DNA from: Eledone cirrhosa
Taxonomy: Eukaryota
Length of the DNA: 64,000 nt
Assembly (NCBI GenBank): GCA_964016885.1
Contig: OZ024743.1
Span: 245,582,001-245,646,000 of the forward strand
Reading direction: 5' to 3'
The position numbers and the translations under genes are program-made. Below are positions 1,376 through 64,000 of this stretch, piece by piece. The notes under the pieces were generated by a model, which saw nothing but the letters and a program-made list of their open reading frames with translations, had not been told where the DNA came from and ran no database searches. Numbering within the stretch: position 1 is the stretch's first letter; the number at the start of each line of letters is the position of its first letter.

Positions 1376-3133
1376 CTAAAAAATCCCTGGACACTGCTCA
1401 ACTGTTTTCCCCACCTTTCTCCATTCCCATCTCTTATTACTCCAAGTGTTACTTTGGCACATCTGCATAATACAATGTTTTGCAAACGGATCGCGATCGC
1501 AAAGATCCATGAACTCAGTCAGAGTCGTCTTAACCATGTTATTGTTTACTTTAACAGCAGCATTGACCCGAAAGAAGATTTGATTTTCCTGAGGTAGATG
1601 AACTTGAAGGCGAACTACGACCGGTTCTCTCTCATGAATTGGAAATCCAAGTACCAAGGCAACAGCTTCTGAAGGACCGATATATCTTCCTGTTAAATAC
1701 TGTATTATCTCATCTGCTCTGTTCACTCCAAACATTGTTTGATCACTGCCCTTCATGGTATATTTGATAACGTATTTGATCGATTTCACGGAAGAGCACA
1801 TCTCTACGTTTAGGTGGCAGTTGAACAGTTTTAATAGTTTCATATTGTAGGGAACCACCCATTCCGAAGTTATATTTCGGCTTCCCCTTCCTTCTTGGTG
1901 CCCCTCAAATCCTCCCATTCCTGGAGACCGTCTTCTGTACACAGGATAAGAGTCCTCTCCACACAATGTATATTCATTGAAAGGTTTAGGGTACCGCTTA
2001 CTGTACGTTCCATCTTTCCAACACGGCGAATTGTTAGAGCAATTCGGACCATGGATCATGTGCTTCAGCACCAATTCATGACTCTTAGGATCTTTGTTTG
2101 GATCTGGTATTTCGGCTTGAACAAATTTATTGTATTCCTGCGGTCTGGGCTTGGAGGCTTCATTGAGCCATAGCAAACAGTGCACATGAGGAAGACCTCG
2201 CTTTTGATATTCGACTGTCAGCACGTAAGCAATACACTTACCAAATAGGCCATCTACTCCAGTAAGATACTTTCTTAACAGTTTCCGCTTCAGGTCAAAT
2301 ACTCTGGCAATTAAATCTGGCCTGTTGTGTGGCTTCTGATTCGGGAATAGGTTTTGCCAGTTTGGATTACATGTCATTGTGATGAAGAACGAAGGATTGC
2401 CGTACTTCCGTATGTACATCATGGCATCCTGGCATCGCTCCATCATATATCTCGGTCCACCGACAAATGTGGAAGAAAGTATGATTCGCCTGCCAATATT
2501 GCGAAAATCGTCATCATCATTCAATGCGTCAGTAAGGCCCTTGTATGTTGTAGATCGCAATGATGTTTGATTTATTCGGATGTATTGCAGTCTATCTCCT
2601 TCAATCTTCGCAGCCATGTCAACCAAATATTGCTGAAATAAACGACTGCCTCTGAGAAGTTGGTTGAATTCATTCTCATGGTTCATTATTCGATAGGCAT
2701 AGTAGCGCATTGGCGTCAACTTCTTGTTGTTGCTCATTAACAGCTCACGATGCCATCCGTCATCGCCAAAAAGAAAAAATAGACCGATGGACTGATGGGA
2801 CTCTGAGATTATTTGCAATTGTCCGCATTTTTCTTTCAACACAATGGGCCGTACTTTTGCTTGAAGTTTGGTGCTGTTTTGTATAATAATGGCAACTTCG
2901 TTTGCAGTTTGTGCATTGAATCTTCTCTCATGTTCCATTGCTTGTCTCCTATCAGGATCAATAATAATCGAAGTTTCGGGAATATTTTTAATTTGTTCTT
3001 TTGCCATTCGAAATGAAGCAACGTAAGGGTTATATTGTCTGAGTATTATTTCCAATAATTCAACTATGTCGCACTGAATGCCATCGTTATGGAGTATCCT
3101 GATCCTCAAATCAACACTATCCTGAAGATCCAA
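1376..3133 (-). pseudogene. Helitron Rep (HUH endonuclease) segment
   Basis: All three Rep motifs present in a 585-aa ORF; neighbouring segments are in other frames. Confidence 0.9.
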
Positions 3134-4574
3134 GAAGTAAATTTGAAGAAATTAGGGTTGTTCGTTGGGATTAGGGGTTAAGGAACCGATGTAATGGTGA
3201 ATTTGACCATGAATAACGATAGAAGGATTCCATCCACCCCTTGAGGAACGAACTTCTTCGGCCCCAAAAGATGTCATTTGGAACAGGCAGTTGTATTGTC
3301 TGAGGTTCTTCCTGAACTTGTTTGCCCTAGGTTGATCAGTACTAAATAAACTGTGAAGTTCCTGGGGTAAAGGCTGCAGATTCCCCAACCTGACTTTTCC
3401 ATTCATACAGCAAAAGTTAGCAGTTTCATCATGAAAAAGCATTACATGACAATAGACACAGATCTTATTCCTCTGTCCAACATCAGCAGAGAGGTCACGT
3501 CGTTGAACTGTCCTTGTTCTATCCCTAATGGTTTGTTGGCAAAGACGTTCAGTTCTCCGAGCGGCCGATTCATGATCTCTCCTTCTTCTGTCTCTTTCCC
3601 TCTGTTCCGCCAGACGTGCAGCCCTTACTTTATCAGTCTCATCGATCCTTCTATTCGCATGCCTGTCCCGATCTTGTTGGCGTTGACCACTATCTTGCTC
3701 ACCTTCTTCGGCTCTCCTTAGCCGTACTTTCTTTCCACTATCGCGATAGACCAACCAGATGTTTTCTTTCTTCCTTGTCGAGGCATTATTTAAGAATAGA
3801 AAATCGTATTCACCTTAGAAAAAATGCCTATTACCTCAACACATATTTTTTTTAAATCATCATTTAGAAATATTTCCAAATAATGAAAATATTGTCTGTT
3901 TAAACAACTCGTATTTTTCAAATCATATTCACTTAAAAAATACTTATTCTGTTTAAATACTTATTCTGTTTAAAGGAAGCTGAAATATATATACTCAGTG
4001 TACAAATAATTTTTATTTTTTAAGTCATTTTCACTTAAGAATATCTTTTAAATATACCAAGAAATATTTTTTCCATCGTATTCACTTGAAAATCATTTTT
4101 TTTAAAATGAAGATATTGTCTATGTAAATAAAGCTATTTGTGAAATCAAATTCACTTTAAAATATTTCTAAATAATTGAAATATTCTTTTTAACAAAAGC
4201 AAAAATATAAACACCTACTGTTTAAAACTAACTGGTATTTTTCAGTCATATTCACTTAATGCTTTTCTGATAATTAAAATATCGTCTGTTTAAAGAAAGC
4301 TCAAATATAGATACTTGAAGTACAAACAACTTGTAGTTTTGAAAACATATTCACTGAAAAATCTTTTTTTAATAATTATTAAAAATATTTCTCGAATGAT
4401 GAAAATAGTTTATGTCGATTTACGTCAAACTTGTTTTATCCCCATTTCAGGGTTATGTCACTTATTTCAGGGTTATGTCACTTATGTTCCCATTATGCAC
4501 CGTTTTGGTTATTTACGAAGGTATCCTACACACACACACAAATATATATATATATGTCTCTAACTTAAGTACTG

Positions 4575-5384: not shown

Positions 5385-6358
5385 TATATTTCTTTATTTG
5401 CCACAAGGGCGCACAAGAAAATGGGACAATACAAAGACACATGCCGGGGATTTTACATACAGTCGTGTAAAAAATATAAAACAAACAATTATAACAATCG
5501 AAATCCCCAATAAGGGGGAGGCGCCACAAATGGGTTGTTTAATACCCTGTCGATAGAACAACCCTCAATTTCAGGAGCGTGTTGTGCAAGTGCTCCTTTC
5601 TTCCTTTTGCTCTTTTCTTTAACCTATAGGCTTATAAACAGAGAAGGCCTAACCACTCGGGCCATTTTCGCTTCATTCACCCACCTTTCAGTAAATTTAC
5701 TGGGGTGCAGTGCCTCTCTCTCTACTCTGATTCTCCTTCTAAAGTGATACTTAAAGAAGGAAATCAATTGTTGTCCGGAGAGAAAGGTATCTGTCCTCAG
5801 TCCTCTCAATCTCGTCCACCATATAACCTCTTTCACCATAGCCACTATAGAGAGGAAAACCGTCTCTCTTTCATTTTTGAAAGAAGTTGGCGGTTTGATC
5901 CTTACTATGGACTCGGCAGTCAACTGGATTTGTCCCATACGCGACAGCCGTTGTTCTGCATAGTTCCACAGGTCAGTTACGCCCGGGCAGTGTACAATTG
6001 CGTGCAGGACAGTTTCAATGTCCTGCGCGCATCTTGGACACGTCCTCTTGGAAGGATCCCTGCCGGGGCGTCCGTGCCTGTAGATCTTGTCACGAACTGG
6101 TAGAGTTCCTCGGTAGCACTGCCAGGCCAGGGACCTCTGGAAGTTGTCCATGGGTCCCGGGCGGAAAGTCCTACCAAACAGAGTGGTGACTTCGTTGTCT
6201 TCGACGCCTAGAGTCTCTCCGAGCACGTCGTCGCCCTTGTGACGTACTAACCCTCTATAGAATGTCGAAGTGGAGTTTCCACTGATTGCCGTGCCCGCTT
6301 GACAGAGGATTGTGAGCGCCTGAGCGCATTGAATGTGCCAGGCGCCCATCTTCTTCGG
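5385..6358 (-). mobile_element. Tx1/L1-clade LINE, 5'-truncated 3' end
   Basis: ORF 5624-6349 has a zf-RVT-like motif (LPVRDKIYRHG..CPRC..ETVLHAIVHCP); 3' UTR ends in AATAAA; 5' end abuts (GA)n. Confidence 0.8.
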
Positions 6359-6366
6359 TCTTTATT

Positions 6367-9360: not shown

Positions 9361-9560
9361 NNNNNNNNNNNNNNNNNNNNNNNNNNNNNNNNNNNNNNNN
9401 NNNNNNNNNNNNNNNNNNNNNNNNNNNNNNNNNNNNNNNNNNNNNNNNNNNNNNNNNNNNNNNNNNNNNNNNNNNNNNNNNNNNNNNNNNNNNNNNNNNN
9501 NNNNNNNNNNNNNNNNNNNNNNNNNNNNNNNNNNNNNNNNNNNNNNNNNNNNNNNNNNNN
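9361..9560. other. Assembly gap (200 N)
   Basis: Run of N. Confidence 1.
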
Positions 9561-18700: not shown

Positions 18701-21366
18701 CACAGGTTCTCAGCCCATTTGGGCCAAACGCCCCCTTTTGTCCCTCGAAATCACGAAACGCCCCTACCCTATTTTTCCATTTTTCAATATACTACTGATT
18801 TTGATATCAGTAGATTACTAAAAAATTGATTAACGATATTCCAAAGATACCATTGCAGGCAGCTGAGAGTATAAATACATTCCTTGAAAGGAAATATATA
18901 AATTTCCAAAAAAGGAACATAAATGTTCTTTTTTATGAATAAGGACCAGATGAATCTGTTATATTCCCACCAGGCGATACCAACTATTTTGAACATTTAT
19001 ACAAGAGCAACTCTGTCTATCCAAAGAGTGCTCTTATCTGGAAAGAAAGTGGCAATTATATCATTTCAAAGCTTTCCAATTTTCTCTTTAATGAAACGGA
19101 CAGAATAAATGTTGATATCTAACTTGATGTCCCCTCTGTTTTGTGAACTTAGAGACCACGGAAGAGGGTTTTCCTGACCATATAAGAGGGTATATTTATT
19201 AGTAAATGGTAAAATATATACAACAAATGAGAAAGGAAATTGTAGTAGATGGTTTCCCATCCAGTCAGACTGCAACTACAAATAAAACAATAGCATATCC
19301 AAGTTTTCGGATAAATCAACTTACTTTAACTTTGACCTCATTTCAATAGAACCATTGAGCTTCATGGAGTCTAGCTAACTCTTTAACGTCAGGCTGAATT
19401 TTTGTAAGATGTAGCCAGAGATCTCCACATGTAATTACATTGTAGCGGTTGCGAGCCTTACTGTGCAGTCTGGAAACTGCACCAAACCTCCTCTTGACTA
19501 AGTATGAGCTTGGAAAAGGCAGAGCAAATCTCTTAGCCTCTGTATGTAGGTGTGGAAATCGACGCTGAATTTCCTCTTGCATCCAAAAGAGGGGTTCACC
19601 TATTTGGGGAAATCTAATTTTGATCATGTCATCTGCTTGAAGTTCAATGAATTCTTCCTGAAATTTAACATCGAAATCGTCGACGTTAGCTATGAAGGGA
19701 TCTGCTATACACATTGGGTGGTCCATCGGCAAAAGGTCGACAAAGCGTTCTCTCATGTTGTCTTGTAGCACACGGAGGTGAGTGGTATAAATTTGGAATT
19801 GGTAATCGCTCACAATGTTTTGAACATTGGCGACACTAGGAAAATTATAGAATTCCCATCTACAAAGATTCCTTTCGATGACATTCAATTTGGCCAGGAA
19901 TGTTTTCACAGAATTCCTTGCTTTAAGCAAGGTGATCTTCCCATGCAAAGCCAAAATGACGCTATTGCATTTGTCAAAGATGTCGGTGAGGTAGGCGCAG
20001 TTTTGCCTCACATCGAGGGTTTTCTTGTACAGTTCTGTGTTGCGTCATCGCAGAAACTCAACGATAGAGTCGAACAGTTCAAAGAAGTGAGTAAGGCACT
20101 TGCCCTTTGAAAGGCACCTCACTTCATTATGAAGGAGCAACTTGATAAATTCTTCGTCATTATCTTGGCACAGTTGCCGGAAAATTCGTTCATTGAGGGA
20201 ATGCCGTTTGATAAAATTGATGACATCAATGGCCACCTGCAAGGACTTGCTCAGCGGCTTACTGAGTTTCTTCGCAGCCAAGTGTTGTCGATGAATGACA
20301 CAATGAACAACAAATACAGATAGATTTTCTCTCTTCAGAAGAGTTACGAAACCCTTATGCTGGCCGACCATTGATCTTGCGTCATCCGTAGCACATGATA
20401 CAATGTGTGTTGTATGTGGTCCTAGATGTATGTATTACCTTCCTGTGTGTTGTATGTAGTCCTAGATGTATGTATTACCTGATTATGTATTACATGTGGT
20501 CCCAGCTGTATGTATTATCTGCTTGTGCGTTGTATGTGGTCCTAGATGTGTGTATTACCTCCTTATGTGTTGTATGTGATCCTAGATGTATGTATTACCT
20601 GATTATGTGTTGTATGTGGTCCTAGATGTTTGTATTACTGATTATGTGTTGTATGTGATCCTAGATGTATGTATTACCTGCCTGTGTGTTGTATGTGGTC
20701 CTAGATGTGTGTAATACCTCCTTATGTGTTGCATGTGGTCCTAGATGTATGTATTACCTGCTTATGTGTTGTATGTGGTCCTAGATGTGTGTATTACCTG
20801 CTTATGTGTTGTATGTGGCCCTAGATGTGTGTATTACCTGCTTATGTGTTGTATGTGGTCCTAGATGTGTGTATTACCTGCTTATGTGTTGTATGTGGTC
20901 CTAGATGTGTGTATTATCTGATTATGTGTTGTATGTGGTCCTAGATGTGTGTGCTACCTGCTTCTGCGTTTTTTCTTTTCTTTTTTTTATTTGTACAATA
21001 TCATTTATACAATAGGGAATAAAGTAGATCTACATAGTGTTAACTCGTTACGGTTGAGTCAATAATTTATAAGATTCTAACTGGCTACGCTCAAAGTGTC
21101 CTTGACCCAGTTGACTGTGAGTTTTTTTCCATTTTTAGGATCTCAATTGCCGGTTAATGTCTAGAAACGCCTGCACACCTGCTCACAGCTACAGTCAGAC
21201 CATAGTTATGCTGTCTGCATGCTCGTACAAATGCATTCACACTGGCTGTCTCAGCGACATACAAATATGGCTTATAAAACTTACCAAAGTAAAGAGCCTT
21301 CCAGTGCCCCCCAAAGCTCCAAACGCTACCCTGGAGTTCCGAAACGCCCCGTGTTGAGAACCTTTG
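18701..21366 (-). mobile_element. hAT transposon (Buster/Charlie, ZBED8/SCAND3-like), internally deleted
   Basis: TIRs CACAGGTTCTCAGC / GTTGAGAACCTTTG; TSD ATTTAGTA at 18693-18700 and 21367-21374 (central TA); ORFs with HCVIHRQHLA, LLLHNEVRCLS, YLTDIF and PFPSSYLV. Confidence 0.92.
20401..20960. repeat. 40-bp minisatellite, 14 units
   Basis: Unit GCTTATGTGTTGTATGTGGTCCTAGATGTGTGTATTACCT. Confidence 0.95.
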
Positions 21367-28804: not shown

Positions 28805-30285
28805 TACTATATATTTTCAGCAGTAATATTATACTATATATTTACAACAGTAATACTATACATTTTCAACAGTAATACTATACTATACTATATATTTTCA
28901 ACAGTAATACCGTACTATATATTTTCAACAGTAATACTATACTATATATTTTCAACAATAATACTGTACTATATTATATATTTTCAACAGTAATACTGTA
29001 CTATATATTTTCAACAGTAATACTATACTATATATTTTCAACAGTAATACTGTACTATATATTTTCAACAGTAATACTGTACTATATATTTTCAACAGTA
29101 ATACTGTACTATATATTTTCAACAGTAATACTGTACTATATATTTTCAACAGTAATACTATACTATATATTTTCAACAGTAATACTATACTATATATTTT
29201 CAACAGTAATACTGTACTATATATTTTCAACAGTAATACTGTACTATATATTTTCAACAGTAATACTATACTATATATTTTCAACAGTAATACTGTACTA
29301 TATATTTTCAACAGTAATACTATACTATATATTTTCAACAGTAATACTGTACTATATATTTTCAACAGTAATACTATACTATATATTTTCAACAGTAATA
29401 CTGTACTATATATTTTCAACAGTAATACTATACTATATATTTTCAACAGTAATACTGTACTATATATTTTCAACAGTAATACTATACTATATATTTTCAA
29501 CAGTAATACTGTACTATATATTTTCAACAGTAATACTATATTATATATTTTCAACAGTAATACTGTACTATATATTTTCAACAGTAATACTGTACTATAT
29601 ATTTTCAACAGTAATACTGTACTATATATTTTCAACAGTAATACTATACTATATATTTTCAACAGTAATACTATACTATACTATACATTTTCAACAGTAA
29701 TACTATACTATACTATACATTTTCAACAGTAATACTACTATACAATACTATATATTTTCAACAGTAATACTATACATTTTCAACAGTAATACTATACTAT
29801 ACTATATATTTTCAACAGTAATACCGTACTATATATTTTCAACAGTAATACTATACTATATATTTTCAACAATAATACTGTACTATATTATATATTTTCA
29901 ACAGTAATACTGTACTATATATTTTCAACAGTAATACTATACTATATATTTTCAACAGTAATACTGTACTATATATTTTCAACAGTAATACTATACTATA
30001 TATTTTCAACAGTAATACTGTACTATATATTTTCAACAGTAATACTATATTATATATTTTCAACAGTAATACTGTACTATATATTTTCAACAGTAATACT
30101 GTACTATATATTTTCAACAGTAATACTGTACTATATATTTTCAACAGTAATACTATACTATATATTTTCAACAGTAATACTATACTATACTATACATTTT
30201 CAACAGTAATACTATACTATACTATACATTTTCAACAGTAATACTACTATACAATACTATATATTTTCAACAGTAATACTATGCT
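28805..30285. repeat. 27-bp minisatellite with higher-order duplication
   Basis: Unit TTTTCAACAGTAATACTRTACTATATA; variant blocks recur at a 914-bp offset. Confidence 0.95.
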
Positions 30286-30382
30286 ACACAGACGGCTTAT
30301 CATCTGTTTATCCAAGCGAAGCTAGGTACGTCAGCTATATATATATATATATAGTTATGTAATAAACAACATAAGGCAATTA

Positions 30383-37100: not shown

Positions 37101-37475
37101 ACATACACTTCCGCTGATTCTTATCTCCAGAGTGATTTGATCACAGCATCAACCTCATCGGTCCCGGAGTGCCTCCAAATGTCATGGGTACAGCCGTTTT
37201 CTCCGTTCGGAGAAATAAAAAATATAAGCATATTTCTTTTTTTTCACAAAAACCTGAAGTTCGTTTCGTTGTTTACTTTTTCAATTGTCTTTCTCTAATT
37301 ATCAATTTCATGGAACATGTAAACAGTACTATACTCGATATAGTTTATCAAAGTATAATAAATTTCTTTTTAAGAAAAAACAAAAACAAAAAAAAACAAC
37401 ACACGGCTGAGTGTTGTCCGGTTTAGGGCAACTTGATCTAACAAAATAGCAAAACTGCGCAAACTCCAAAAGTCT

Positions 37476-37490
37476 ACTTCCGGTATAAAT
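37476..37490 (+). promoter_or_regulatory. ETS-type site ACTTCCGGT with adjacent TATAAAT just upstream of the SDR39U1 ATG
   Basis: Motif lies about 30 nt 5' of ATG 37510; common in housekeeping promoters. Confidence 0.4.
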
Positions 37491-37509
37491 AAAAACATCT
37501 CCTGCCAGC

Positions 37510-37525
37510 ATGAGTGTTGTTGTCG
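37510..37525 (+). CDS. SDR39U1: SDR39U1 exon 1 (MSVVV-G)
   Basis: ATG AGT GTT GTT GTC G|GTAAGT; phase 1 joins exon 2 to give MSVVVGGGSGFIG (Rossmann beta-1). Confidence 0.8.
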
Positions 37526-37708
37526 GTAAGTAAAATGAAATTTGTTAACAAAAGCCCTCAAAACCAATTATATCATAATTTGTTATTGAATTAACAGTTA
37601 TATGTAACGTAACAACGCCTTTGTGTATATTTATATATTTCGCCAGTGTTCAAAGGTTATATAACATTAACTTATTATAACTGTTCAAATCGTTATATAA
37701 TGCTGAAG

Positions 37709-37801
37709 GTTAACTTTGCGTTTCATCCTTACGGGGTCGATAAAATAAAGTACCAGTAATGTACTGGATAATTTGATGGCCTTGTGCCAAAAGTAGAAAC
37801 A
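37709..37801 (+). mobile_element. 5'-truncated SINE with 17-bp TSD
   Basis: GTTATATAATGCTGAAG at 37692-37708 and 37802-37818. Confidence 0.8.
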
Positions 37802-38711
37802 GTTATATAATGCTGAAGACGCCGGTTTAATTAGGGGAAAATGTTGATAGAAGAGGAATTTCTGATATCAAACTTTCGTTATAGCTATCGTAAGTATAAT
37901 ATCGCCATAGCTTCATTATGATTTCACAACGTATTTTTTTACCTTGCACGTCGAAATCATTTGTGTGACATTGTGCTATGTATTATATAAGGAGAGTAGT
38001 GAATGTCATCCGGTTGTTGTTATCATAAGACAATTTCTATGATATTTGTGTTTTAATCTCAATCTAAGTGCTCCCTTGGGCGATATTTAATTTTAGCGGC
38101 CTAAATGCCGCTTACTTGCTGTAGTTGCTGCTTACTTCAATGTATGAGGCTATTCCAACAAATTTACATTCCCCCTTTTTTAGCTGTTAAAAGAAATATA
38201 GATTTATTTATTGTTTTTTTTTTTACCATTTCTCCACCTTGATCCTTCTTTCGAAGTGGTATCGGAGGAAGAGGACCATTTGTTGGCCGGCGACATATCC
38301 CCACAGTTTCCTCGTTGCAAACGCATCTGGGACATTTCTTTTCCAAGGGGTTTCCGTCCCGGAATCCGTGTCTGTAGAGCCTTTCCCGAACGGGCAGGGC
38401 CCCTCGGTATAATAGTAAGTATTAGTGGTTGTAATAAAAATGCAATCAAAATGTAATAAATACCTTCACTGATTTCTTTCCTTATATTATCAACAGAAGT
38501 TGGTATGTCACCCAAAGTTCGCTTTGTATGTTCCCGAATAGCAGTGAATTTTGATAAAACTGTGTAGTTGAAGAGGATAAGTATGAAAGAACAGTCATTT
38601 AAATTTACAGATGGACAGATGTGGTGTTTGGCAGGGTTTGAGATATATAGAAAAATAATTATTTACAGAAAAAGAAAATAATAATAAAGAATTATTATAA
38701 TTTTTTTAAAG

Positions 38712-38870
38712 ATTTATATCTTTTTGGACTACACATGGATATTTGTCTTACTGTGGAGAAGGAATTAGAAACAGTTTTATCAAAATTCACTGCTATTCGG
38801 GAACATACAAAGCGAACTTTGGGTGACATACCAACTTCTGTTGATAATATAAGGAAAGAAATCAGTGAAG
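38712..38870 (+). pseudogene. RMND5: Captured RMND5 (GID2/CTLH E3 ligase subunit)-like first coding exon
   Basis: MDICLTVEKELETVLSKF resembles the RMND5A N-terminus as recalled (MDQCVTVERELEKVLHKF); AG at 38710-38711 and GT at 38871; no other RMND5 exon seen. Confidence 0.72.
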
Positions 38871-38924
38871 GTATTTATTACATTTTGATTGCATTTTTAT
38901 TACAACCACTAATACTTACTATTA

Positions 38925-39390
38925 TACCGAGGGGCCCTGCCCGTTCGGGAAAGGCTCTACAGACACGGATTCCGGGACGGAAACCCCTTGGAAAAGAAAT
39001 GTCCCAGATGCGTTTGCAACGAGGAAACTGTGGGGATATGTCGCCGGCCAACAAATGGTCCTCTTCTTCCGATACCACTTCGAAAGAAGGATCAAGGTGG
39101 AGAAAAAGGCACTCAGTCCCAGCCAATTCCATGAAAGATGGGTGAAAGTAGCAATTATGGCCTGTGTAAGTGGGCCATCTCTCTATATCGGCTTGTACAG
39201 GTAAGAGAAGAAGGGAGCATCCCCCTCTCTCTGTGCTCCCTGGCAGAAAGGTCGCACACTTTCTACGGGGGTGTGTGTGACCCCAAAAGGCTAATAAATC
39301 GCAAACAAACAAACAAACAAACAGGGGGCAAATAAAGAAATCTATGCCCCAGTGGCAAATAAATCGCAAAAAAAAAACAATAAATAAATC
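38925..39390 (+). mobile_element. Tx1 3' fragment inside the fold-back arm
   Basis: YRGALPVRERLYRHG..CPRC..EETV and FFRYHFERRIKVEK; homologous to 5624-6349. Confidence 0.75.
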
Positions 39391-39467
39391 TATATTTCTT
39401 TTAACGGCTAAAAAAGGGGGAATGTAAATTTGTTGGAATAGCCTCACATTGAAGTAAGCGGCATTTA

Positions 39468-40775
39468 ATAATAATAATAATAATAATGAAATTGTGTACA
39501 GTGCTCAGGTGCACTACAACTCATCAAAAGTGCATGTATAGTACATAGAATAATGTACAAATGTCAGGAAAATGAACAGTGTACGAGTCATGATATAACA
39601 ACAATAATGAAATATTGTGTACAGTGCCCAGGTGCACCACAACTCATCAAAAAAGTGCATGTACAGTACATAGGGCAATGCACAAACATCAGTAAAATAA
39701 ACAGTGCACGAGTCATGATACACACGTGTGCATGTATATGGAAGGGGTACATCAGGTGTAGTTTTGGCATATTTCGGGAAGCATGAGTGTCTTAAAGGAT
39801 GCAGTGTCTCGGCAGCTAACAATTGACGCAGGCAGTTTGTTCCATGCTTCAGCAACTCTGAGCGTGAAAAAATGTCTACGAAAGTCATGGGAGCTGTGCT
39901 GTTTTCCCGATCTTGTAGGCATGTCCACGTGTGTTAGACACATGGAGATCAAAGAGGCGCTCAGGGTTGCAATTGGCGAGATGGTTAAAAACTTTGTGGG
40001 TATTCACCAAGTCCATTGCCAGACGTCGGAGCTTCAATGAATCCATGCCCAGGGAAGCAAGGCGTTCAGAGTATGGTAGGTGTCTGATGGAGGGTATGCG
40101 CTTGGTTGCACGTCTCTGAACAGTTTCCAGGAGGTCAATGTTCTGAGCAAGATAGGGGTCCCAGACTGATGATGCGAATTCCAAGTGTGGTCGTACCATA
40201 GCTGTATACAGTTTTAAATAGATGGCTGGAGAGCGGCTAACAAAGGTCTTGCTGAGTGATGCCAAGACACCCTCGGCCTTCTTGACAATCTTAGAGTCAT
40301 GCTTTGTCCAACGCAAATCGTTGCTGACAGTAATGCCCAGGTCACGTTCACAAGAGGACTTTTTGATCTCAGTGTTGTGGAGGGAGTATGTGGACGCTGG
40401 ATTTTTTCTTCCAAAATGCATGGTGGTACACTTGTCCACAGCCAGCTTCAGTTGCCAGTCTGTGATCCATTGCTGCATTGTGTCCAGGTCTGATTGTAGG
40501 AAAGAGTTGTAAATTTCAGGATCAGTCCTTTTGATTTCAAGGTACAGCTTGATGTCATCTGCATATTTTAGTACCGTGGCATTCTGTAAGTTGGCATCTA
40601 TGTCGTTAATATATGCCACAAACAAAAGAGGACCAAGAACAGATCCCTGTGGTACACCAGATGACATCTCATATGGTGAAGAATGCTGTCCTAGAACCGT
40701 GACTACTTCTTTTCGGCTGAGAATTAAGGATTTCAACCAGTCGAAAAGATCATCCCTCACACCCATTGCAGAGAG
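39468..40775 (-). mobile_element. CR1-group LINE, 5'-truncated, with (ATT)n tail
   Basis: SGVPQGSVLGPLLF, YADD and VRPHLEFA motifs; TTTA on both sides; same family as 61450-64000. Confidence 0.92.
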
Positions 40776-40939
40776 TTTAGGCCGCTAAAATTGGATATCG
40801 CCCTCCCTTGTTATAGAAGACTGAGTTACTCTTTTACAAATATGGGGATCGTCAATTATACAGGCCTCTTTCTGTGACTCCAGCGTTTGCAGCATTTAAT
40901 ACTCTTACTATTTAGATACACCTGCTGGAGATGCTACAT

Positions 40940-41290
40940 TTAGACACTTATGTCTGTATTTTCCCGCTAGGATAGAGTCAGGAGCCTGTCACCTTTCCTC
41001 GGACGTTTCCACCCTAAACCAACTAGTCAGCAATGATGGCTTGTCGCTGCCCATTTTCTCCTAGCTTCCAATTCAACTCCTGTTTACTCCAAAACCGGTA
41101 TGGTGGGGATGAGGATGTCCTTTGCTTACCCCAACCTGCGAGCAGCTGTCTCCTATCCCTCCCTCCACACATACTGTGTTGAACAACCCCTGTAGTCAAC
41201 CTCAACTGGAAATAGCGATGCCTATCGCCATTTTTCTCACATTGTTGGATCAGGTCCTGATAGTTAGTGGGCTTCGCACGCGACCGCCAG
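40940..41290 (-). mobile_element. Decayed RLE-type (HERO-like) non-LTR 3' fragment
   Basis: K..NYQDLIQQCEKNG followed by a frameshifted P.EV..RG-like motif. Confidence 0.4.
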
Positions 41291-42468
41291 CTCAATCAGG
41301 ATGATGTTTTTTTGCCTACTACGACCATATAACTGTCAGATATGGAAGTTTTGGACAGCCCGAGGAAAATGTTTTCTTCCCACGCTCACCCTCATCTCCC
41401 ATGATTGGGCTGTTTGCAAGAGGATCTTAGTCTGTTTTTACTTATATTGTGGCACATGTGGTTGTATGGCGTGGTTTCATTAGCTACGCCATAAAAATAA
41501 ATACATGTGGTTGATCACACTTTGTGTGTGTAACAAGATATATTGGCACATGCCTAGATATAGTATAATATATTACAATTTTGTAAGTGTCTCATTCTAG
41601 ATGTACCAAATTCTGCCAACTACAGCAGCTATTTTTCAAAATAAATATTACAGAATACTGTTATACTTAGGGAGGGTCATGTTGCTGATAAAAACATATG
41701 CACCAGTTGAGTTTCATTTGGGTTTTATCATTAGTTAGGTAAGTAATCCTTTCTCGGTTAGTTTAACACTTTACCTCACATAATTATTTCCCATAATATC
41801 GAATCTATGAAATGTTGATGTCATTTATTTTGAGAACAATACCTTAACATAAGTATGAACAGAAAGAGGTTAGAAAATTCTGGCCGTATACGGCTGGTTT
41901 AAATGCTAAAGGGTTAATAACCAGGTGGTTAAGTGCCAAAGCACTTTCATCACACATTCTTTGTGACTATTCTTGTTCCTTTGTGTCTTCTCATTATTTA
42001 CTCCATCTTAGAGGTTTACTATGTTGGTCTGTCAAGGCTTACAACACTGGCTGGAGTAACTTTATTACAGATGATTTGGTATGAGTTAGTGGGGGATTAA
42101 GAGATGGAAGTAACTGGGCTGACAGGGGACCCCACATTATTTAACAAACCCTAAATTAATTTTTTTTGTTATCATAAATAATACACTGGTCCCAATGAAA
42201 TTTTCAGTCAGGGGCCCCATACAAGCTGAATCGACCCTTGATGTGAACTATGTAGTAGAAATGTAGGCTTTGTAATTTTCTTAGTATGATCAGAGTAAGA
42301 AGTGTCAAAAACTAGATTCATCAATTTACCAAACTGTAAGATGAAACTATTTTATGTGGGAGAAAGAGGTGTACATTATAGGACTAGCTGAGCAGCACCA
42401 AATACCCTGGTACCAGCCCTACTCACACTGTTTTTCTTTATTATATTATTTTCTACTTTTACCTGTAG

Positions 42469-42575
42469 GTGGTGGAAGTGGTTTCATTGGACGTAATCTT
42501 TGTAAGAGATTAAAGTCTGTTGGTTATAATGTAATAGCTGTGTCCAGATCTGCAGGGTTGAACAAAATTACTTGG
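42469..42575 (+). CDS. SDR39U1: SDR39U1 exon 2
   Basis: tag|GT GGT GGA AGT GGT TTC ATT GGA..KITW|gtgagt; GxGxxG NAD(P)-binding motif. Confidence 0.93.
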
Positions 42576-43279
42576 GTGAGTCATTACTATAAAACTTCAC
42601 TACATATACGTTTTTTTACTACTCTTAGTCATTAGACTGCGGTCATGTGGGGGCACCATATTGATTTAATCAGTCATATGGACCCCAGTATTATTTTTTC
42701 AAATCTGGTACTTAATTTATCTATCTTTTTTTTTTACGAACAGCTAAGATAAAACACAGACACAAACATAAACATGAATATACACATATCTACATACATA
42801 CATTGTATATATTTGTCAACCTGCTGAATTACAGGACACAGACACAAACCCCTTCTTCCTTGCAGAAAGAACTCTTCAGTTGGGACAATAACCTTTCTTG
42901 TGTTGGTGCCACGGAAATGCACCTGGTATACCTTGTAAAGGGGTTGGCAACAGGAAGGACACTCAGCTGTAGAAACCATGTCTAAAAGGATTAAGAGGGC
43001 CCTTCAGTTGTGTCAACCACACAACGACCTCTTTGGTGATGGTGATCTACATGATGATCGGACCCAGTACATGCTGTAAAGTGGTTGGTGATAGAAATGG
43101 TATCCAGCTGTAGAAAGCTTGCCAAACAAAGGTTTGAGAGGGCCCTTCAGTTATGTCAAAGACATAACAACCTCTCTTGTGCTGGTATACACAGTAGAAT
43201 ATGGGACTATATAAATGAGATGCAGAGTCCCCGGCCTGTCTGGGAAATCAGTAGCCCCGCTTCTGTCCAACTCTTGCTA

Positions 43280-45049: not shown

Positions 45050-45135
45050 GAAGAGCTACAGAGAAATGGACTTCCAAATGGCTGTAAAGTTGTTGTTAAT
45101 TTAGCGGGTGAAAACTTAATGAATCCTTTAAGAAG
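45050..45135 (+). CDS. SDR39U1: SDR39U1 exon 3
   Basis: cag|EELQRNGLPNGCKVVVNLAGENLMNPLRR|gtgagg. Confidence 0.92.
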
Positions 45136-46899: not shown

Positions 46900-47021
46900 A
46901 TGGGGCCCAGCTTTTAAGAAAGATCTTTATGACAGTCGCATTAGCACCACCAAAGCCTTGACAAAAGCTATTTCTGAAGCACAGACACCACCTGAAGTAT
47001 TTGTAAATACCTCTGCTGTAG
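46900..47021 (+). CDS. SDR39U1: SDR39U1 exon 4
   Basis: cag|WGPAFKKDLYDSRISTTKALTKAISEAQTPPEVFVNTSAV|gtaagt. Confidence 0.92.
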
Positions 47022-48173: not shown

Positions 48174-48326
48174 GGTTCTATGCTCCTGATGCCAATAAAT
48201 GTTATACAGAGGAAAGCGAAGGGGGTAATCATGACTTCTTGTCTCGTCTTTGTTCTGAATGGGAAGCAGCTTCAACATTGAAACCTCTTCTATCTGACAC
48301 AGTACGGCAGGCTATTGTTAGAGTTG
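48174..48326 (+). CDS. SDR39U1: SDR39U1 exon 5
   Basis: cag|GFYAPDANKCYTEES..DFLSRLCSEWE..RQAIVRV|gtaagt. Confidence 0.92.
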
Positions 48327-54519: not shown

Positions 54520-55055
54520 GATGCTCAAAGTCGATGGAAGCCTTGGAGTGGGGAGACCCTGGAAGACTTGGGATGAGGTGAAAAAAGCTGACCTTGTCCA
54601 ATTGCACCTCTCAAAGGCTATGACACAGGACCGAGACCTCTGGCATTATGCTATAATACAAAAGACCTGACTTCACACGGGCACAGGCTGAAGCTGAAGC
54701 ATATATACAGTATTCCCCACCCTACACCCCTATATATTTCCCATGAGCACAGGCCGAAGTATGCATCCAGTGAAACCCCCAACCCACACTGTAAAGTGCT
54801 CGTGTAGGTGTCATGACAAAAAGCACCCAGTTCACACTGTAAAGTGGTCTTGTAGATATCATGACGAAAAGGACCCAACACCCACTGTAAACGAGGTTGG
54901 CGTTAGGAAGGGCATCCAGCTGTAGAAACCAAGCCAAAATCAGTTCTGTATGAGCAAGACATGGTCACCTGACCTAGCATTGCCCACAACAGGACAACTC
55001 ATATAACCAATGCCAGCATAGAAGAATAGATATAAAATGGTAATGATGATGATGA
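54520..55055 (+). mobile_element. RTE 3' end fragment, sense orientation
   Basis: GRPWKTWDEV..; GGCGTTAGGAAGGGCATCCAGCTGTAGAAA; GATGATGAT tail. Confidence 0.8.
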
Positions 55056-55096
55056 CTCATCTACCTTACTATTCCACCACCAAGTCACTTTCCTTC

Positions 55097-57950
55097 ATCA
55101 TCACCGTTTTACGTCCGTTCTTCCACGCTAGCATGGGTTAGACGGGTTGTCCTGTTGTGGGCAGTGTCTGGTCGGCTGACCATGCCTTGCTCATACAGGA
55201 ACTGATCTGGCTTGATTTCTACAGCTGGATGCCCTTCCTAACACCAACCTCATTTACAGTGAGTGCTGGGTGCTTTTTTGCCGTGGCACCTCCACGACCA
55301 CCTTGCGGTGGGGGGTGTGGGGGCATATTGTCTATATGCTTCAGCTTGTACCCATGGGAGGTCGGGTACTCTGTATTACTGCGTGACGCTAGAAGTCACG
55401 GTCATGTGTCATTGTCTTTGAGAGGTGTAATTGGGTAAGGTCGGCTTTTATCACCTCATCCCAGGTCATCTTGGGTCTCCCCACTCCGCGGTTTCCATCA
55501 ACTTCTAGTGCTCGGCACCTTTTTATGCAGCTGTCATCCTTCATACGCATCACATGTCCATACCAGCGCAACCGCCTCTCCTGCACACAGCATTTGATTC
55601 CTCTTATGCTCAGTCTCTCTCTCAATTCATTTATACTTTGTCGTTCACGTATATTACTGTTACACATCCATCGGAGCATGCAGGCTTCGTTTCTCTCTAA
55701 TCTACGTAAGTCTTCCACCTTCAGCGCCCAGGTCTCACTACCATGCAACATCGCTGTTCGGATACACGCATCATACAGTCTGCCTTTCATTCTGAGGGAG
55801 AAGCCTTTTGCAGCTAGCAGTGGTAGTAGTTCCCTAAACTTCTTCCATCCCGTTCTTACCCTAGTTATTGTACTTTCTGAACACCCACCTCCGTTGCTAA
55901 TTCGGTCACCTAGGTAGCAGAAGCTGTCTACTGTTTCTACAGGGCCCTCCCAGAGATTGGTGGTACTTGTTTCCTGTGGCTGTTTGCTGCTTGCTGTCTC
56001 AGCACAGCTGCTGCATGTGAATCCTACATTCTTAATTAAGCTTCCTGAGATCCCGCTACATCTCTTGTGTACCCATTGTTTGCATTTGGGGCAGAGAATG
56101 GAGTTCCTACCTTCACCTTTCCTACATACTGAGCAAGGCCATTTCCCTGAGGGGATCTGGGTTCTGTTTTCTCGTCTACTTACAAGGACCTTAGTCTTTG
56201 TCATGTTGACTTTGAGACCCTTTCTTTCTAGTCCCTGCTTCCAGGTTTGGAATTTATTCTCTAGTTCTACCATAGATTCAGCTATGAGTGCGAGGTCATC
56301 AGCATACAGGAGTTCCCATGGGCATCCGGTCTTAAACTCCTCCGTTATTGCCTGCAGGACTATGATGAACAGGAGAGGGCTAAGAACAGAGCCCTGGTGG
56401 ACCCCCAACCTGTACGCTAAATTCCTCGCTATACTCATTGCTAATCCTAACTTTGCTGACTGCTCCCCTATACATGGCTTGTACCGCTTTCACAAGCCAT
56501 TCATCTACTCCTAGTTTTCTAAGAGCCCACCAGATTACAGCACGTGGAACTCTGTCAAAGGCTTTCTCAAGGTCGACAAATGCCAAGTAGAGTGGCTTAC
56601 TTTTAGCTAGGTACTTTTCCTGTAATTGCCTCACAAGGAAGAGGGCATCAGTGGTGCCTCTTCCTGGTACAAACCCAAATTGCATCTCGTCTATTTTCAC
56701 CCGGTCCCTAATCAGCTGTGCTATAACTCTTTCTGTTACTTTCATGACCTGGTCCATCAACTTTATACCTTTATAGTTTCCTCTATCTGGTGCATCGCCT
56801 TTACCTTTGTAGCAGTTGACAATGATGCTACTGCACCAATATTTTGGTATGGCCCCTTCTAGTATTACCTGGTTAACGATACGTGTGGTTATAGTGTGAC
56901 CTACAGACCCAGATGCCTTCAGCATCTCGGCAGCTATACCCGATGGACCGGTTGCCTTCCCCATCTTCATATCTTTGATTGCCTTACTTACTACGCTGCT
57001 GCTGACTTGTACTGCTGGTCCCTCTATTCTCCTTAGAAACCTACTCCAACCACAGATTTCATTTATCGCCTTCAGTAGGTTATCTTTCAGGAACTTCCAC
57101 TGCTCCTCTACATTGTATGTCTCTATTTGCTCTTCCTTACCCTCAAAAGTGTCACTCAACATACTTCTAAATTTGTTACTGGTTGAGGAGTCTTTTAGCT
57201 TCTATATTCTTCTTCCTCAGGTCTCCCGTTGCCAGCCTCTTCTACTACGTTATGTTGAGGTCATTCTTCACTAGGGAGGTACTTTGTGTTCACAACAGTC
57301 GCTCTTGTCTTCTGGTAAGAATATCTATCTCGCTGGCATACTCACCTGATCTAGAAGTGATTAAGTGGTTGTCCCATTTATTGAAGTTCATGTTACAGAT
57401 ACATAGGTCATTAGCGTTGCAGAATTCCAAGAGCCTGAAGCCTTAATCAAACCCATAATCACCATGGATCTCGTTGAAGCCAACATACCCATTAAAGTTG
57501 CCTGAATATGTATGATGTATGAGGTCGCTGTCACCTACTGGGGAGGTAGTGAACATTAGGGACTCATAGAACCTGTCTTTTAGTACGTCTAGCAGTCCAG
57601 ATTGAGAGGCATATGCAGATATGATTGTCATGGTTCTATTTAGTACAGATCTAAGTTTAATTATTCTGTCATTTACTCTATTTACATAAATAACTTTGTC
57701 TACCCATTTTTCTGCTACAAAAATCTCTACTCCATCCAGCCCATTGTTATTTAATACCCAGAAAAATTTGTAGCATCGTTTTTGGCCCACAAGAAATCTA
57801 GCTGACATTTCCCTCCATCTAGTCTCTTGTACACGGCGCACATCAATTTTCTTTCATTCAAGCATCTCTACAAGTTCTCCAGATCTTCCTTTCTTCGTGC
57901 CTACATTGATGGTGCCAGCTCTGAAGTTATGGAGTTCAGTGCAGAAGAGT
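55097..57950 (-). mobile_element. RTE-clade LINE, decayed (APE plus RT with PHD-like insert)
   Basis: ORFs 57443-57841, 56380-57162 and 55389-56438 (VHQGSVLSP, LYADD). Confidence 0.92.
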
Positions 57951-58868: not shown

Positions 58869-59278
58869 GTATTGTTCTAGGAAGAGACGGTGGAGTTATT
58901 CAGAACATGTACCCTATCTTCTACATGGGACTGGGTGGAAGACTTGGCTCTGGTAAGCAATGGTTTCCATGGATACACATCAGTGATATTGTTGGCATCT
59001 ACCAATATGCCATCTGTAATTCCACCATAAAAGGTGTCTTAAATGGAGTAGCACCACAACCTCAAACAAATTCTGAATTCACACAAACTTTTGCAAAAGC
59101 CATCAATCGTCCAGCTATTTTCCCTGTACCAGAGTTTTCCATAAATCTTATCTATGGCCAAGAGAGAGCCAGTGCTATACTTGAAGGCCAAAACGTTTTA
59201 CCAAAAAGAATGTTAAAATCTGGTTATAAGTTTGAATTTCCTGATTTGGTTTCAGCCTGCCAGAATCTTTGTCAATAA
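58869..59278 (+). CDS. SDR39U1: SDR39U1 exon 6 (last coding exon, DUF1731-type C-terminus)
   Basis: cag|GIVLGRDGG..GLGGRLGSGKQWFPWIHISD..NGVAP..LEGQNVLPKR..FEFPDL; spliced CDS is 894 nt. Confidence 0.95.
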
Positions 59279-59898
59279 TTTTTTACTATGATGTTTGCAT
59301 AGTTGACAGAATTTGGGGATTTACTAAATGATATCAGCCTGGGACCTTTGGTAAACTTTCCAGTATAAGTTCATGATAGTATATGTTTTAGATGCTATGT
59401 AAGAAAGATTAAAAAATAATAATTAAAATGTTCAAATTGAAGGGAAAAAAATTAAATTGGATTTGTTTTTATTGATTTGATACTATTAATTTATGAAATT
59501 AAATGAAAATGGCGTAGGCATTACAATACAACGGGAGGAAACATAATAGTACCACAGATGTGAGACAAAAGAACTTTGATAGACTATATATATATATTTA
59601 TATCTGTATTTTTAAACGTTGGTGAATCAATGATAAATATTGATTGCCAGATAAATTAACTATAGAGGTATAAAAAATACAGAAGCGAAAACCAACCCAA
59701 ACAGTGAGTGTGTTCTGTTATTATTTCTGGCAATATTATAACAATATGACCCTCCCCAAATATACCAATATATATATATATACAAGTTGAAATAAAATGA
59801 AAACGAAATTTCATTTCTCACTCTTAGTACGGCACTTACTTAAATGTAAGTATGTGTGTATACGTACATACATATATGTATACAGACGTACAGTAGCA

Positions 59899-59952
<54 letters not shown>

Positions 59953-60146
59953 TATACATATATACATACATACATATATATACATATATACATACAGGTA
60001 CACATACATATATGCACGTATCAGTTTAGCGGACGCTTATTATAACGCCGCTTTGTTCGTTTGTAAACAAACTGAACAGCCTGAATGTTATGCCGTACGG
60101 TGTTAAGGCAACCACGTCACCTTTTTGTTCAACACTGACACAGGAA

Positions 60147-60187
60147 CGATGTACTAGTTTCAAGCTTGTTAGCTATCATCAGCACCG
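60147..60187 (-). ncRNA. Minimal type I hammerhead ribozyme (inverted twin)
   Basis: Exact reverse complement of 60443-60483. Confidence 0.85.
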
Positions 60188-60442
60188 TATACCCATCTGC
60201 CAGATAGTTGAACGTTCAAAAGTATATACTTTCCTTATGAAAATTAACGGCTGAGCAGCCTAATTTGCATGCCGTACTAAGAGTGAGAAATGAAATTTCG
60301 TTTTCATTTTATTTCAACTTATCGTTCTCGGTATGCCTGACCGACATAACTCACTCGATATGCAAATTAGGCTGCTCAGCCGTTAATTTTCATAAGGAAA
60401 GTATATACTTTCGAACGTTCAACTATCTGGCAGATGGGTATA

Positions 60443-60483
60443 CGGTGCTGATGATAGCTAACAAGCTTGAAACTAGTACATCG
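60443..60483 (+). ncRNA. Minimal type I hammerhead ribozyme
   Basis: CGGTG-CTGATGA-TAGCTAACAAGCTT-GAAA-CTA-GTA-CATCG; palindromic CTAG stem III. Confidence 0.85.
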
Positions 60484-60632
60484 TTCCTGTGTCAGTGTTG
60501 AACAAAAAGGTGACGTGGTTGCCTTAACACCGTACGGCATAACATTCAGGCTGTTCAGTTTGTTTACAAACGAACAAAGCGGCGTTATAATAAGCGTCCG
60601 CTAAACTGATACGTGCATATATGTATGTGTAC

Positions 60633-60667
<35 letters not shown>

Positions 60668-61449
60668 TGCTACTGTACGTCTGTATACATATATGTATGT
60701 ACGTATACACACATACTTATATATATATATGCATATTTGTGTAGATATGGATGTATTTATGTATATATGATGTGTTATGTGTTTTATGCTTGTATATGTA
60801 TAGAAAAAAAAAATTTCCTACGTGTCTAAACTGAAGACTGACAATGTAAGTTACCTCCCTTTCGTTGATATTTTTAATCCTTTTTGTTACTTTGACAGGG
60901 TTTCCCAACCTTCTCTCAGCCAGTGCCCCCTTTGGGCGCAAACTTTTTTGTCAACACCCCCAGCAAATTAAATTTCAAATAAGATACTGAATTCATCTTA
61001 CATCAAATGGGTACAAAACCTAAAACAAATGTGTGTGTGTGCACATCTGTGGTTGGGCCTTTAATCGCTAGGGGTCAATTTAAGTTCAATCGCAGAAAGG
61101 AATTCATCTTTGCATGCTTGTGTACATGGGTTGGTCAAGTGGGGTGCCTCAGTGGTTGTGGAGGATGCATGTATATATTTGTGTATATAAGTGGTCGTGG
61201 AGGTGCCATGGCAAAAAAGCACCCAACACTCACTGTAAATGAGGTTGGTGTTAGGAAGGGCATCCAGCTATAGAAATCAAGCCAGAATCAGTTCCCGTAT
61301 GAGCAAGACAAGGTCAGCTGACCGGACACTGCCCACAACAGGACAACCCGTCTAACCCATGCTAGCGTGGAAGAACGGACGTAAAACGGTGATGATATGT
61401 ATATATATACATACTTATATGTGTGTGCATGTATGTATATACTCGTGTA

Positions 61450-64000
61450 TAATAATAATAATAATGCAATATTGTGTACAGTGCTCAGGTACACTACAAC
61501 TCATCAAAAAGTGTATGTATAGTACATAGGGTAATGTACAAACGTCAGGAAAATGAACAGTGCATGAGTCATGATATACACGTGTGCATGTGTATGGAAG
61601 GGGTACATCAGGTGTAGTTTTGGCGAATTTCGGGAAGCATGAGGGTTTTAAAGGATGCAGTGTCTCGGCAGGCAGTTTGTTTCATGCTTCAGCAACTCTG
61701 AGCGTGAAAAAATGTTTCCGAAAGTCATGGGAGCTGCGCTGTTTTCTGATTTTGTAGGTATGTCCACGCGTGTTAGACACATGGAGATCAAAAAGGTACT
61801 CAGGGTTGCTGTTGGCGACATGGTCAATAACTTTGTGGGTGTTTACCAAGTCCATTGCCAGATGTCGGAGCTTCAATGAATCCATGCCCAGGGAAGCAAG
61901 GCGTTCAGAGTATGGTAGATGTCTGATGGAGGGTATGCGCTTGGTTGCACATCTCTGAACAGTTTCCAGGAGGTCAATGTTCTGAGCAAGATAGGGGTTC
62001 CAGACTGATGATGCGAATTCCAAGTGTGGTCGTACCATAGCTGTATACAGCTTTAAATAGATGGCTGGAGAGCAGCTAACAAAGGTCTTGCTGAGTGATG
62101 CCAAGACACCCTCGGCCTTCTTGACAATCTTAGAGACATGCTTTATCCAATGCAAATCGCTGCTGACAGTAATGCCCAGGTCACGTTCACAAGAGGACTT
62201 CTTGATATCAGTGTTGTGGAGGGAGTATGTGGACGCTGGACTTTTTCCTCCCAAAATGCATGGTGGTACACTAGTCCACAGCCAGCTTCAGTTGCCAGTC
62301 TTTGATCCATTGCTGCATTGTGTCCAGGTCTGATTGTAGGGAGTTGTAGATTTCAGGATCAGTCTTTTTGATTTCAAGGTACAGCTTGATGTCATCTGCA
62401 TATTTCAGTACCGTGGCATTCTTTAAGTTGGCATCTATGTCATTAATATATGCTGCAAACAAAAGGGGACCAAGAACAGATCCCTGTGGTACACCAGATG
62501 ACATCTCTTTTAGGCTGAGAATGAAGGATTTCAACCAGTTAAAAAGATCATCCCTCACACCCATTGCAGAGAGTTTTGCCATAAGTCTTTTGTGTGGCAC
62601 AGAATTAAAACCCTTAGCGAAGTCAAGGTAAACAACATCCACCCATGAGCCGCTGTCAGTGATCCGGGTAATGTCTTCAAGGAACTCGATAAGCTGATCA
62701 CAACAGCTGGAGTTAGGGATAAATCCAAACTGTGAGAGCTCCAGAAGTTCCAAAGTGTTTCTCTGATACAGGATTCCATCAGTTTGGCAATACAGCTAGT
62801 AAGACTGACTGGGCGATAGTTGACAGGTGACGTGCGGTCACCCTTTTTGAACAGGGGAATGACACTGGCAGTTTTCCACTGCTCCGGAGTAGCACCATTG
62901 TTGAGACAGTATTGAAAGAAGAAAGAAAGCTGGTGCAAAAGGAAGTACCCGCCACGTTTGAGAAGCAGGTATGTAACACCATCAAGACCAGGGGAGGCAT
63001 AGTTGCGCTTATTCTTAAGGTGACGTCGCAACATTGCAGGTGTAAATTCCATAGTTCTTATGGAATTTGATGTTAGAGATGGTAGAGATGGTACATTCTG
63101 GTTTTCAACAGTAAAAGTGCTTGCATAGCACTCAGCAATGAGTTCTGTGGATTTGGGATCGTCAGTGATCTGGCTTGTGTGAGGATTGCGAAGAGGACCA
63201 ACTGGAGAGTGAGGTCTCTGCTTTGAATGAACATATTTCCAGAACACCTTACTGTCAGGATTGGTGGCTATGCACTGTTCAAATTCAAGCACTGCCTTTT
63301 TTGTCACTTGCTTGAGATGGTTGGAAGATTTATTCCGCTTTTTTCTGTTGGCATCTGATTTATGCAGTTTATATTCCCGTTCAGCGTTCCGACGTTCTTT
63401 CCTGGCAAGTCGGACCGCTGAAGTTTCCCAAATTGCACTTTTGGGTGGTTTTTTTTCTGCTTACGTGGCACCGATGCTGCACACGCTATCCATATTGAGT
63501 CCAGGATGCTCTGGAATATAGTGTTCACATCTCCAGAGTTATAGAACTCATGCCAGTTTGGGCGCTGTCGCTCAGTACAGTACAAGTTCCAATCTGCTTT
63601 CTTCCAATCAAAGCAAGCAGATTGGAGATGGTTCTGGTTTTTGTTGCTGCCCGCAAGAGCCAGATTGGCAATGATCATAGCATGATCAGGGTCGCCTAGA
63701 GGTTCCTCAGTAGTACAACTGATAACCACTTCAGGAGTAGTGGTGAAGATCAGGTCCAAAGTGTTGTCACCTCTTGTTGGAGAGGTGACTACTTGTTACC
63801 AGTTTGAGTCCAGCACTAGCTCAAGGAAATCGTTTGCACTTTGTGGCTAACGAAAGGTTTCCCAATCGATCTCAGGATGATTGAAGTCACCTGCAATAAA
63901 CACATAAGTGGCTGTTTTCCTGGCAGCAGCTCTGAGGATATCGCAAAGCTGTGTGTCCTGATGGTAGTTTGGGGGGCGATAAACAACACCAAGCAGAAGT
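61450..64000 (-). mobile_element. CR1-group LINE (APE plus RT), frameshifted; runs off the right edge
   Basis: GDFNHP, LDLIFT, DH, SPGLDG, NYRPVSLT, YLDFAK, YADD; (ATT)n tail. Confidence 0.93.

Follow-up and report, generated by a model that had tools for sequence, protein, structure and literature searches.

An in-frame RMND5A exon copy in intron 1 of Eledone cirrhosa SDR39U1 is carried by a fold-back element and is probably skipped

Introduction

Intron 1 of SDR39U1 in Eledone cirrhosa holds a copy of a coding exon from another gene, RMND5A. This copy (hereafter the cassette) has the orientation of the host gene, keeps both splice sites and could be read in the host frame. Is it raw material for exon shuffling, as the original prediction proposed, or is it a passenger that the host gene ignores? 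We analysed this locus within a stretch of 64,000 nucleotides (the window). Our reading, to which we give a probability of roughly 0.75, is that the cassette is a skipped and decaying passenger: an RMND5A exon copy within a fold-back element that likely exists in dozens of copies, its donor predicted to be locked in an RNA stem.

The host gene and the frame of the cassette

The SDR39U1 coding region spans positions 37510 to 59278 of the forward strand and is composed of six exons (Table 1). The model without the cassette has 297 amino acids, 223 of which are identical in Octopus sinensis SDR39U1 and 225 in the Argonauta protein. Identity in the last exon is 78% with Octopus bimaculoides and 74% with Argonauta. 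Intron 1 is one of the 3 phase 1 introns among the 5 introns of the gene. Two O. bimaculoides SDR39U1 models (P0001 and P0190) diverge at the N-terminus from the remaining octopods, as would be expected had the 16-nt exon 1 been overlooked in both; neither contains an RMND5A-like insert. A CTTCCGG motif at 37475-37485, directly upstream of the start codon, is presumably ETS-like. Directly downstream of the stop codon lies a long imperfect inverted repeat (59865-60767, about 900 nt, 86%), and region 54835-55310 in intron 5 is palindromic too.

The cassette is 159 nt long, sense to SDR39U1 in intron 1, and is bordered by an AG at 38710-38711 and a GT at 38871-38872. Coordinates, splice sites, orientation and phase-1 symmetry are all as originally predicted. 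Of the three intron phases, only phase 1 leaves the cassette free of stops (two stops in phase 0, four in phase 2). The symmetric phase and the open frame expected of an alternative cassette exon are both present. Splicing of exon 1, cassette and exon 2 gives a model of 350 amino acids with no internal stop, and the boundaries proposed earlier for host exons 1 and 2 proved right. We located the insertion point on a structure model (pLDDT 92.6) of the orthologous protein in O. sinensis. There, strand beta-1 comprises residues 2-6, and the insertion falls at its end, just ahead of the glycine loop. Inclusion would split beta-1 from the GxGxxG motif and would therefore likely impair the enzyme, in agreement with the earlier proposal.

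Intron 1 contains 63 AG..GT pairs that pass loose splice filters fixed at the cassette's own values. Only one of them is in frame and open, the cassette itself, because it is the copy of a real exon. For the same reason, the frame match is not improbable. The a priori chance of symmetry plus frame is about 0.23 at the family level, and with assumed intron fractions 1-4 sense phase-1 insertions are expected among 40-60 copies. The original caveat that in-frame status may arise by chance was fair. The parent exon is the likely source of the open frame and of the two splice sites, and the match to SDR39U1 is likely due to chance.

Table 1 Features of SDR39U1 and of the element in its first intron (window positions)
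Feature	Position	Strand	Basis or remark
SDR39U1 exon 1, coding part	37510..37525	+	16 nt, phase-1 donor; N-terminus as in O. sinensis and Argonauta SDR39U1
Left target-site duplication, 8 bp	38071..38078	.	6-bp reading with ends one base outward fits too
Non-autonomous fold-back TIR element, ends GG..CC, exon cargo	38079..40802	.	both junctions crossed by 0-difference X1 contigs (records 1, 7)
Outer left terminal inverted repeat	38079..38223	.	includes 20-nt internal duplication
Inner left arm	38229..38563	-	antisense copy of 38771-39105, 334/335 identical
Spacer (loop) of family form, 159 nt	38569..38727	+	holds acceptor; joint 38569/38728 and X6 record 24
Cassette	38712..38870	+	23 nt upstream of ATG and 136 coding nt of RMND5A first coding exon
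Inner right arm	38771..39105	+	exon 3' part (last 100 nt), donor, ~50 nt of intron, part of LINE fragment
3' fragment of LINE ORF2 (zf-RVT type), internal deletion, A-run end	38925..39377	+	51-58% identical to LINE ORF at 5627-6361
Outer right terminal inverted repeat, inner part	39368..39467	.	repeat comparison
Second LINE fragment, RT-bearing, inside right TIR	39468..40775	-	TTTA on both flanks; 89% to copy at 61452-62576
Outer right terminal inverted repeat, terminal 27 nt	40776..40802	.	repeat comparison
Right target-site duplication	40803..40810	.	sequence match to left duplication
SDR39U1 exon 2 (glycine-rich loop)	42469..42575	+	spliced gene model
SDR39U1 exon 3	45050..45135	+	spliced gene model
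SDR39U1 exon 4	46900..47021	+	spliced gene model
SDR39U1 exon 5	48174..48326	+	spliced gene model
SDR39U1 exon 6, coding part up to stop	58869..59278	+	spliced gene model

Origin and divergence of the captured exon

From the ATG at 38735 onwards, the 45 codons of the cassette share 87% identity with the start of the RMND5A proteins named as such in Octopus and Argonauta, in support of a captured RMND5A exon. A first protein search with the cassette gave no match among 9 candidates, and a Pfam scan of the cassette gave no hit. A HMMER search gave 65 hits, and a follow-up search with the best of these (1 of 20 candidates) led to RMND5A.

Contigs of four sequencing runs (X1, X4, X5 and X6, of 16 listed, none of them labelled as RNA) were compared with positions 37400-42700. 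X1 is from the same organism, possibly from the assembly's own sample; X5 is from organism B and X6 from organism C. The library kind of X4 is unrecorded; a long parental contig that ends at the donor and an uneven ratio to X1 suggest that it is RNA-like. This contig (record 9) is 1435 nt long; it differs from 38742-38870 at 6 of 129 bases and departs from the window exactly at the donor. We infer that it is the parental RMND5A mRNA. A parental-type contig is also found in X6, with 13 differences in 146; its match reaches 8 nt into the downstream intron, but on the upstream side it begins only at 38733. Both contigs point to an intact parent that is separate from the cassette.

The cassette peptide carries six residue changes with respect to a sequence shared without change by all 3 octopod-type proteins compared, and each change takes one base. 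The first lies 30 nt past the start of the X4 contig, as a 31-letter graph would give. Six base differences and six single-base residue changes thus imply six replacement and no silent substitutions, the differing letters being deduced rather than read directly. This 6:0 ratio has a P of 0.13-0.21 under neutrality, and a borderline P of 0.03-0.06 when the silent sites of the parent are counted; the latter value could mean selection for change. The original prediction had suggested a comparison of dN/dS with the parental exon. Made on these deduced letters, the comparison gives no indication that purifying selection preserves the peptide and, as judged from sequence, would fit neutral decay.

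Could a functional RMND5A-SDR39U1 fusion have recruited the cassette or its ATG? The ATG at 38735 is in frame, and changes that are all replacements can be read as adaptive. However, a fusion is predicted to lose or displace beta-1, four of the six changes fall on residues common to all 9 cephalopod sequences compared, and one of the six brings in a proline. Moreover, a high-depth family contig with no difference to the window carries the same changes, which must then predate the insertion into SDR39U1. There is also no promoter evidence. We consider such a recruitment very improbable.

The fold-back element

The skipped passenger that we favour belongs to an element with termini GGCGATAT..ATATCGCC. 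The last 100 of the 159 nt of the cassette, together with the donor, are inside a 335-nt inverted repeat, a context that the original prediction left out. The 159-nt spacer likely derives from the parental upstream intron and 5' UTR, on the assumption that its origin is parental. Two stretches, of about 262 nt (at 38228) and about 38 nt (at 38563), appear to be missing from the left arm; the shorter loss sits at a short microhomology. In the LINE fragment at 38925-39377, about 75 codons are missing from between the zinc-finger and C-terminal parts. Since the left arm mirrors some of this fragment, the fragment was in place before the arms were homogenised. The related LINE ORF at 5627-6361 gives a weak zf-RVT hit (E 2.4e-5, below the curated cut-off). 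The copies at 39468-40775 and 61452-62576 represent one very high-copy LINE, and the insertion of the former inside the right terminal repeat would likely immobilise this copy of the element. Within the 64-kb window we found no second copy of the TIR end, and 38079-39467 contains no tandem array at score 50. Elsewhere in the window, long ORFs on the minus strand (3-3814) resemble, by motifs that we take to be characteristic, a Helitron replication initiator and helicase. Two minisatellites (28805-30286, 27 bp, 53 copies; 20406-20970, 40 bp, 14 copies) and an assembly gap of 200 N (9361-9560) are also observed.

In X1, a contig covering the exon (38728-38925) has no difference to the window and a depth of 641, against 7.4-11.8 for three unique flank contigs. 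Two of these three cross the element junctions, again with no differences. The fold-back joint, which links 38569 and 38728 on opposite strands, has a depth of 478. From the depth ratio we estimate about 40-65 near-identical fold-back copies in the genome, although depth of contigs does not translate directly into copies and a single insertion site was read. We read the family form as one whose arms reach 38728 around the 159-nt loop, mirroring the whole coding exon. The same joint is found in X4 at a depth of 67, where arm depth is lower than loop depth. Some unique intron bins have no cover in X4, which alone proves nothing.

Long-read assembly can generate long inverted repeats, so the palindrome might be an artefact. 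The target duplication, the arm-specific deletions and the nested LINE argue against it. So does the presence of the fold-back loop in four runs of three studies, as the joint in X1, X4 and X5 and as a loop contig in X6. Of all the explanations weighed here, we regard an artefact as the least probable.

The hairpin might also act in trans, its copies giving rise to double-stranded or antisense RNA against the RMND5A mRNA and tuning the parent gene. The arms of the family form, starting at 38728, mirror the whole coding exon; stem runs of 22 and 21 nt are deduced to match the parent exactly; and the joint occurs in the RNA-like run X4. Yet the long parental-type contig assembles readily in that same run, and molluscs are reported, in the available text of two papers, to be without a dedicated endo-siRNA pathway (PMC11114477, PMC12479628), which leaves the piRNA route alone. 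We regard an action in trans as improbable.

A plausible history for the passenger copy would run as follows. First, a Merlin-like non-autonomous element would have taken up the RMND5A exon with flanking intron. The captured piece would then have been built into both arms, and the resulting fold-back form amplified. One copy would have inserted, in sense orientation, into the phase-1 intron of SDR39U1. Finally, this copy would have lost parts of its left arm and gained a LINE in its right end.

The cassette donor is predicted to be buried

RNA folding predicts that the region forms one long stem. Opening the donor is predicted to cost 20.1 kcal/mol when the left arm is present, against 3.0 kcal/mol when it is removed; host donors 1 and 2 require 3.1 and 6.1 kcal/mol. 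In nascent prefixes, the donor would be unpaired with a probability of 0.001-0.06, compared with 0.52 without the left arm. These are equilibrium predictions, and editing or proteins could open the stem. With its donor predicted to be buried in a 335-bp stem, the cassette is likely skipped. As far as the available text of one preprint goes, RNA stems formed by inverted intronic repeats such as inverted Alu favour exon skipping (bioRxiv 10.1101/2025.03.07.642063). There, the flanking repeats loop the exon out, whereas here the 3' part of the exon and the donor themselves form the stem.

The splice sites are otherwise of the native type. The cassette donor matches U1 at 6 of 9 positions, as do the donors of host exons 2 and 3. 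The acceptor ends with AAG and has 12 pyrimidines out of 20, versus TAG and 16 of 20 for the exon 2 acceptor; the tract of host exon 5 is poorer (8 of 20). The long stem does not include the acceptor, which is predicted to be at least as accessible as the exon 2 acceptor (opening at 7.2 versus 11.6 kcal/mol). The joints listed (15 of 531, from contigs and mostly from high-copy repeats) include no inclusion joint, and the exon 1-exon 2 joint is not among them either.

Intact sites and an open frame make low-level inclusion in some tissues conceivable, perhaps through A-to-I editing that loosens the stem. The resulting 350-aa isoform, likely inactive, would escape decay because it has no stop. 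Octopus editing is indeed described, in the part of PMC9699675 available, as concentrated in intronic and UTR hairpins; the same text reports that it very rarely alters splice sites. Places of A>G and T>C type are no more frequent in X4 than in X1 (32+38 vs 33+38), in a count that covers the whole stretch and mostly other repeats. Pack-TIRs often yield chimeric RNAs with their hosts, but the chimeras in the relevant section of PMC8277862 are retained introns, UTRs or non-coding RNA. As the donor is, moreover, predicted to be paired on emergence, we hold such inclusion to be unlikely.

We return to the skipped passenger. The predicted pairing of the donor, the apparent drift of the peptide and the likely dozens of copies do not support the view that the cassette is usable material for exon shuffling. 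On the same grounds, its ATG is not supported as the start of an RMND5A-SDR39U1 fusion.

The fold-back joint and loop in other organisms

In organism B, the fold-back joint has a depth of 250, compared with 13.7-22.3 for unique contigs, which corresponds to about 11-18 copies on a depth basis. Unique contigs and introns of this organism differ from the window by 6-13%. Contig matching ends at 38022 and resumes at 40835, with unmatched letters beyond each point and no joining contig among those listed, which does not establish that the element is absent there. No difference falls in 38569-38925 among 40 of 444 differences listed, which does not by itself prove identity. In organism C, a contig of 219 nt (X6 record 24) consists of the 159-nt loop plus 30 nt of each arm and shows no difference in 197 nt, at a depth of about 3. 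An arm piece of 142 nt, at about the same depth, has no differences either, whereas the parental-type exon differs at 13 of 146 positions. Because of their low depth, the organism C pieces may be carry-over from a high-copy sample and give no proof of transfer.

These data raise a broader idea: a fold-back transposon with a host exon in both arms, in which the exon masks its own donor, could have inserted at dozens of sites with no harm to the host genes, and could have passed from one octopod species to another. The case for crossing rests on the exact match of the organism C loop and arm (197 and 142 nt) beside a divergent parental-type exon, and on the shared joint in organism B beside divergent introns. 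We put this idea forward tentatively, and it is rather unlikely to hold in full.

Comparison with known elements

By its terminal inverted repeats (38079-38223 versus 39368-39467 plus 40776-40802), its target duplication (CTCCCTTG) and its fragment of a host gene, the element is a Pack-TIR. It resembles multicopy Pack-TIRs of animals such as Drosophila Ssk-FB4, which, as presented in the available text of Tan et al. 2021 (PMC8277862), combine non-autonomous TIRs, a target duplication and an intron-bearing gene fragment spread by transposition. Ssk-FB4 is a fold-back element too. According to the same text, multicopy Pack-TIRs amount to four cases (1.4%) in 100 reference genomes, and the examples given occupy 3-4 loci with the cargo between the TIRs. 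In contrast, the exon is here built into both arms, with an estimated 40-65 or so copies. The words octopus, mollusc and Merlin are absent from the main text of that paper.

As far as PMC8101967 is available, Merlin elements share with ours a terminal 5'-GG and a target duplication of 8-9 bp; we count 8 bp, and 6 bp is possible. The arms are longer, about 770 bp in the family form versus 24-462 bp described. Merlin elements are recognised by a DDE_Tnp_IS1595 transposase or by TIRs common to an autonomous Merlin, and the element here is non-autonomous. For O. vulgaris, the portion of PMC13282606 available annotates Merlin as a superfamily with recent activity. MULE, Pack-MULE and fold-back elements, in the accessible part of PMC5499845, also have TIRs of more than 100 bp, a target duplication of 8-10 bp and captured gene fragments. 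Unlike in MULE fold-back elements, no subterminal tandem repeats were found in the present TIRs at score 50. The element has no transposase; its GG ends and 8-bp duplication would fit Merlin, and its long TIRs and the length of the duplication would also fit MULEs.

Our literature search, over main texts in a collection with few subscription papers, found no paper on this element. In one set of 356 matches, none of the 15 papers listed contained RMND5A or SDR39U1.

An in-frame captured exon alone is likely an example of known gene-fragment capture, and likely silent. What is new with respect to known Pack-TIRs is the combination of a cargo in both arms, copies estimated in the dozens and more than one species. 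The carrier may matter: in the single survey of animals considered, to the extent of its available text, multicopy Pack-TIRs are rare and have few copies, and here dozens of near-identical copies are estimated for more than one octopod. If self-masking is true, erosion of the left arm, already begun here, would unmask in-frame exons such as the cassette. The family offers a natural experiment in which one real exon is placed in many introns, phases and states of arm erosion, and which could test a self-complementary arm as a means of keeping captured exons out of host mRNAs.
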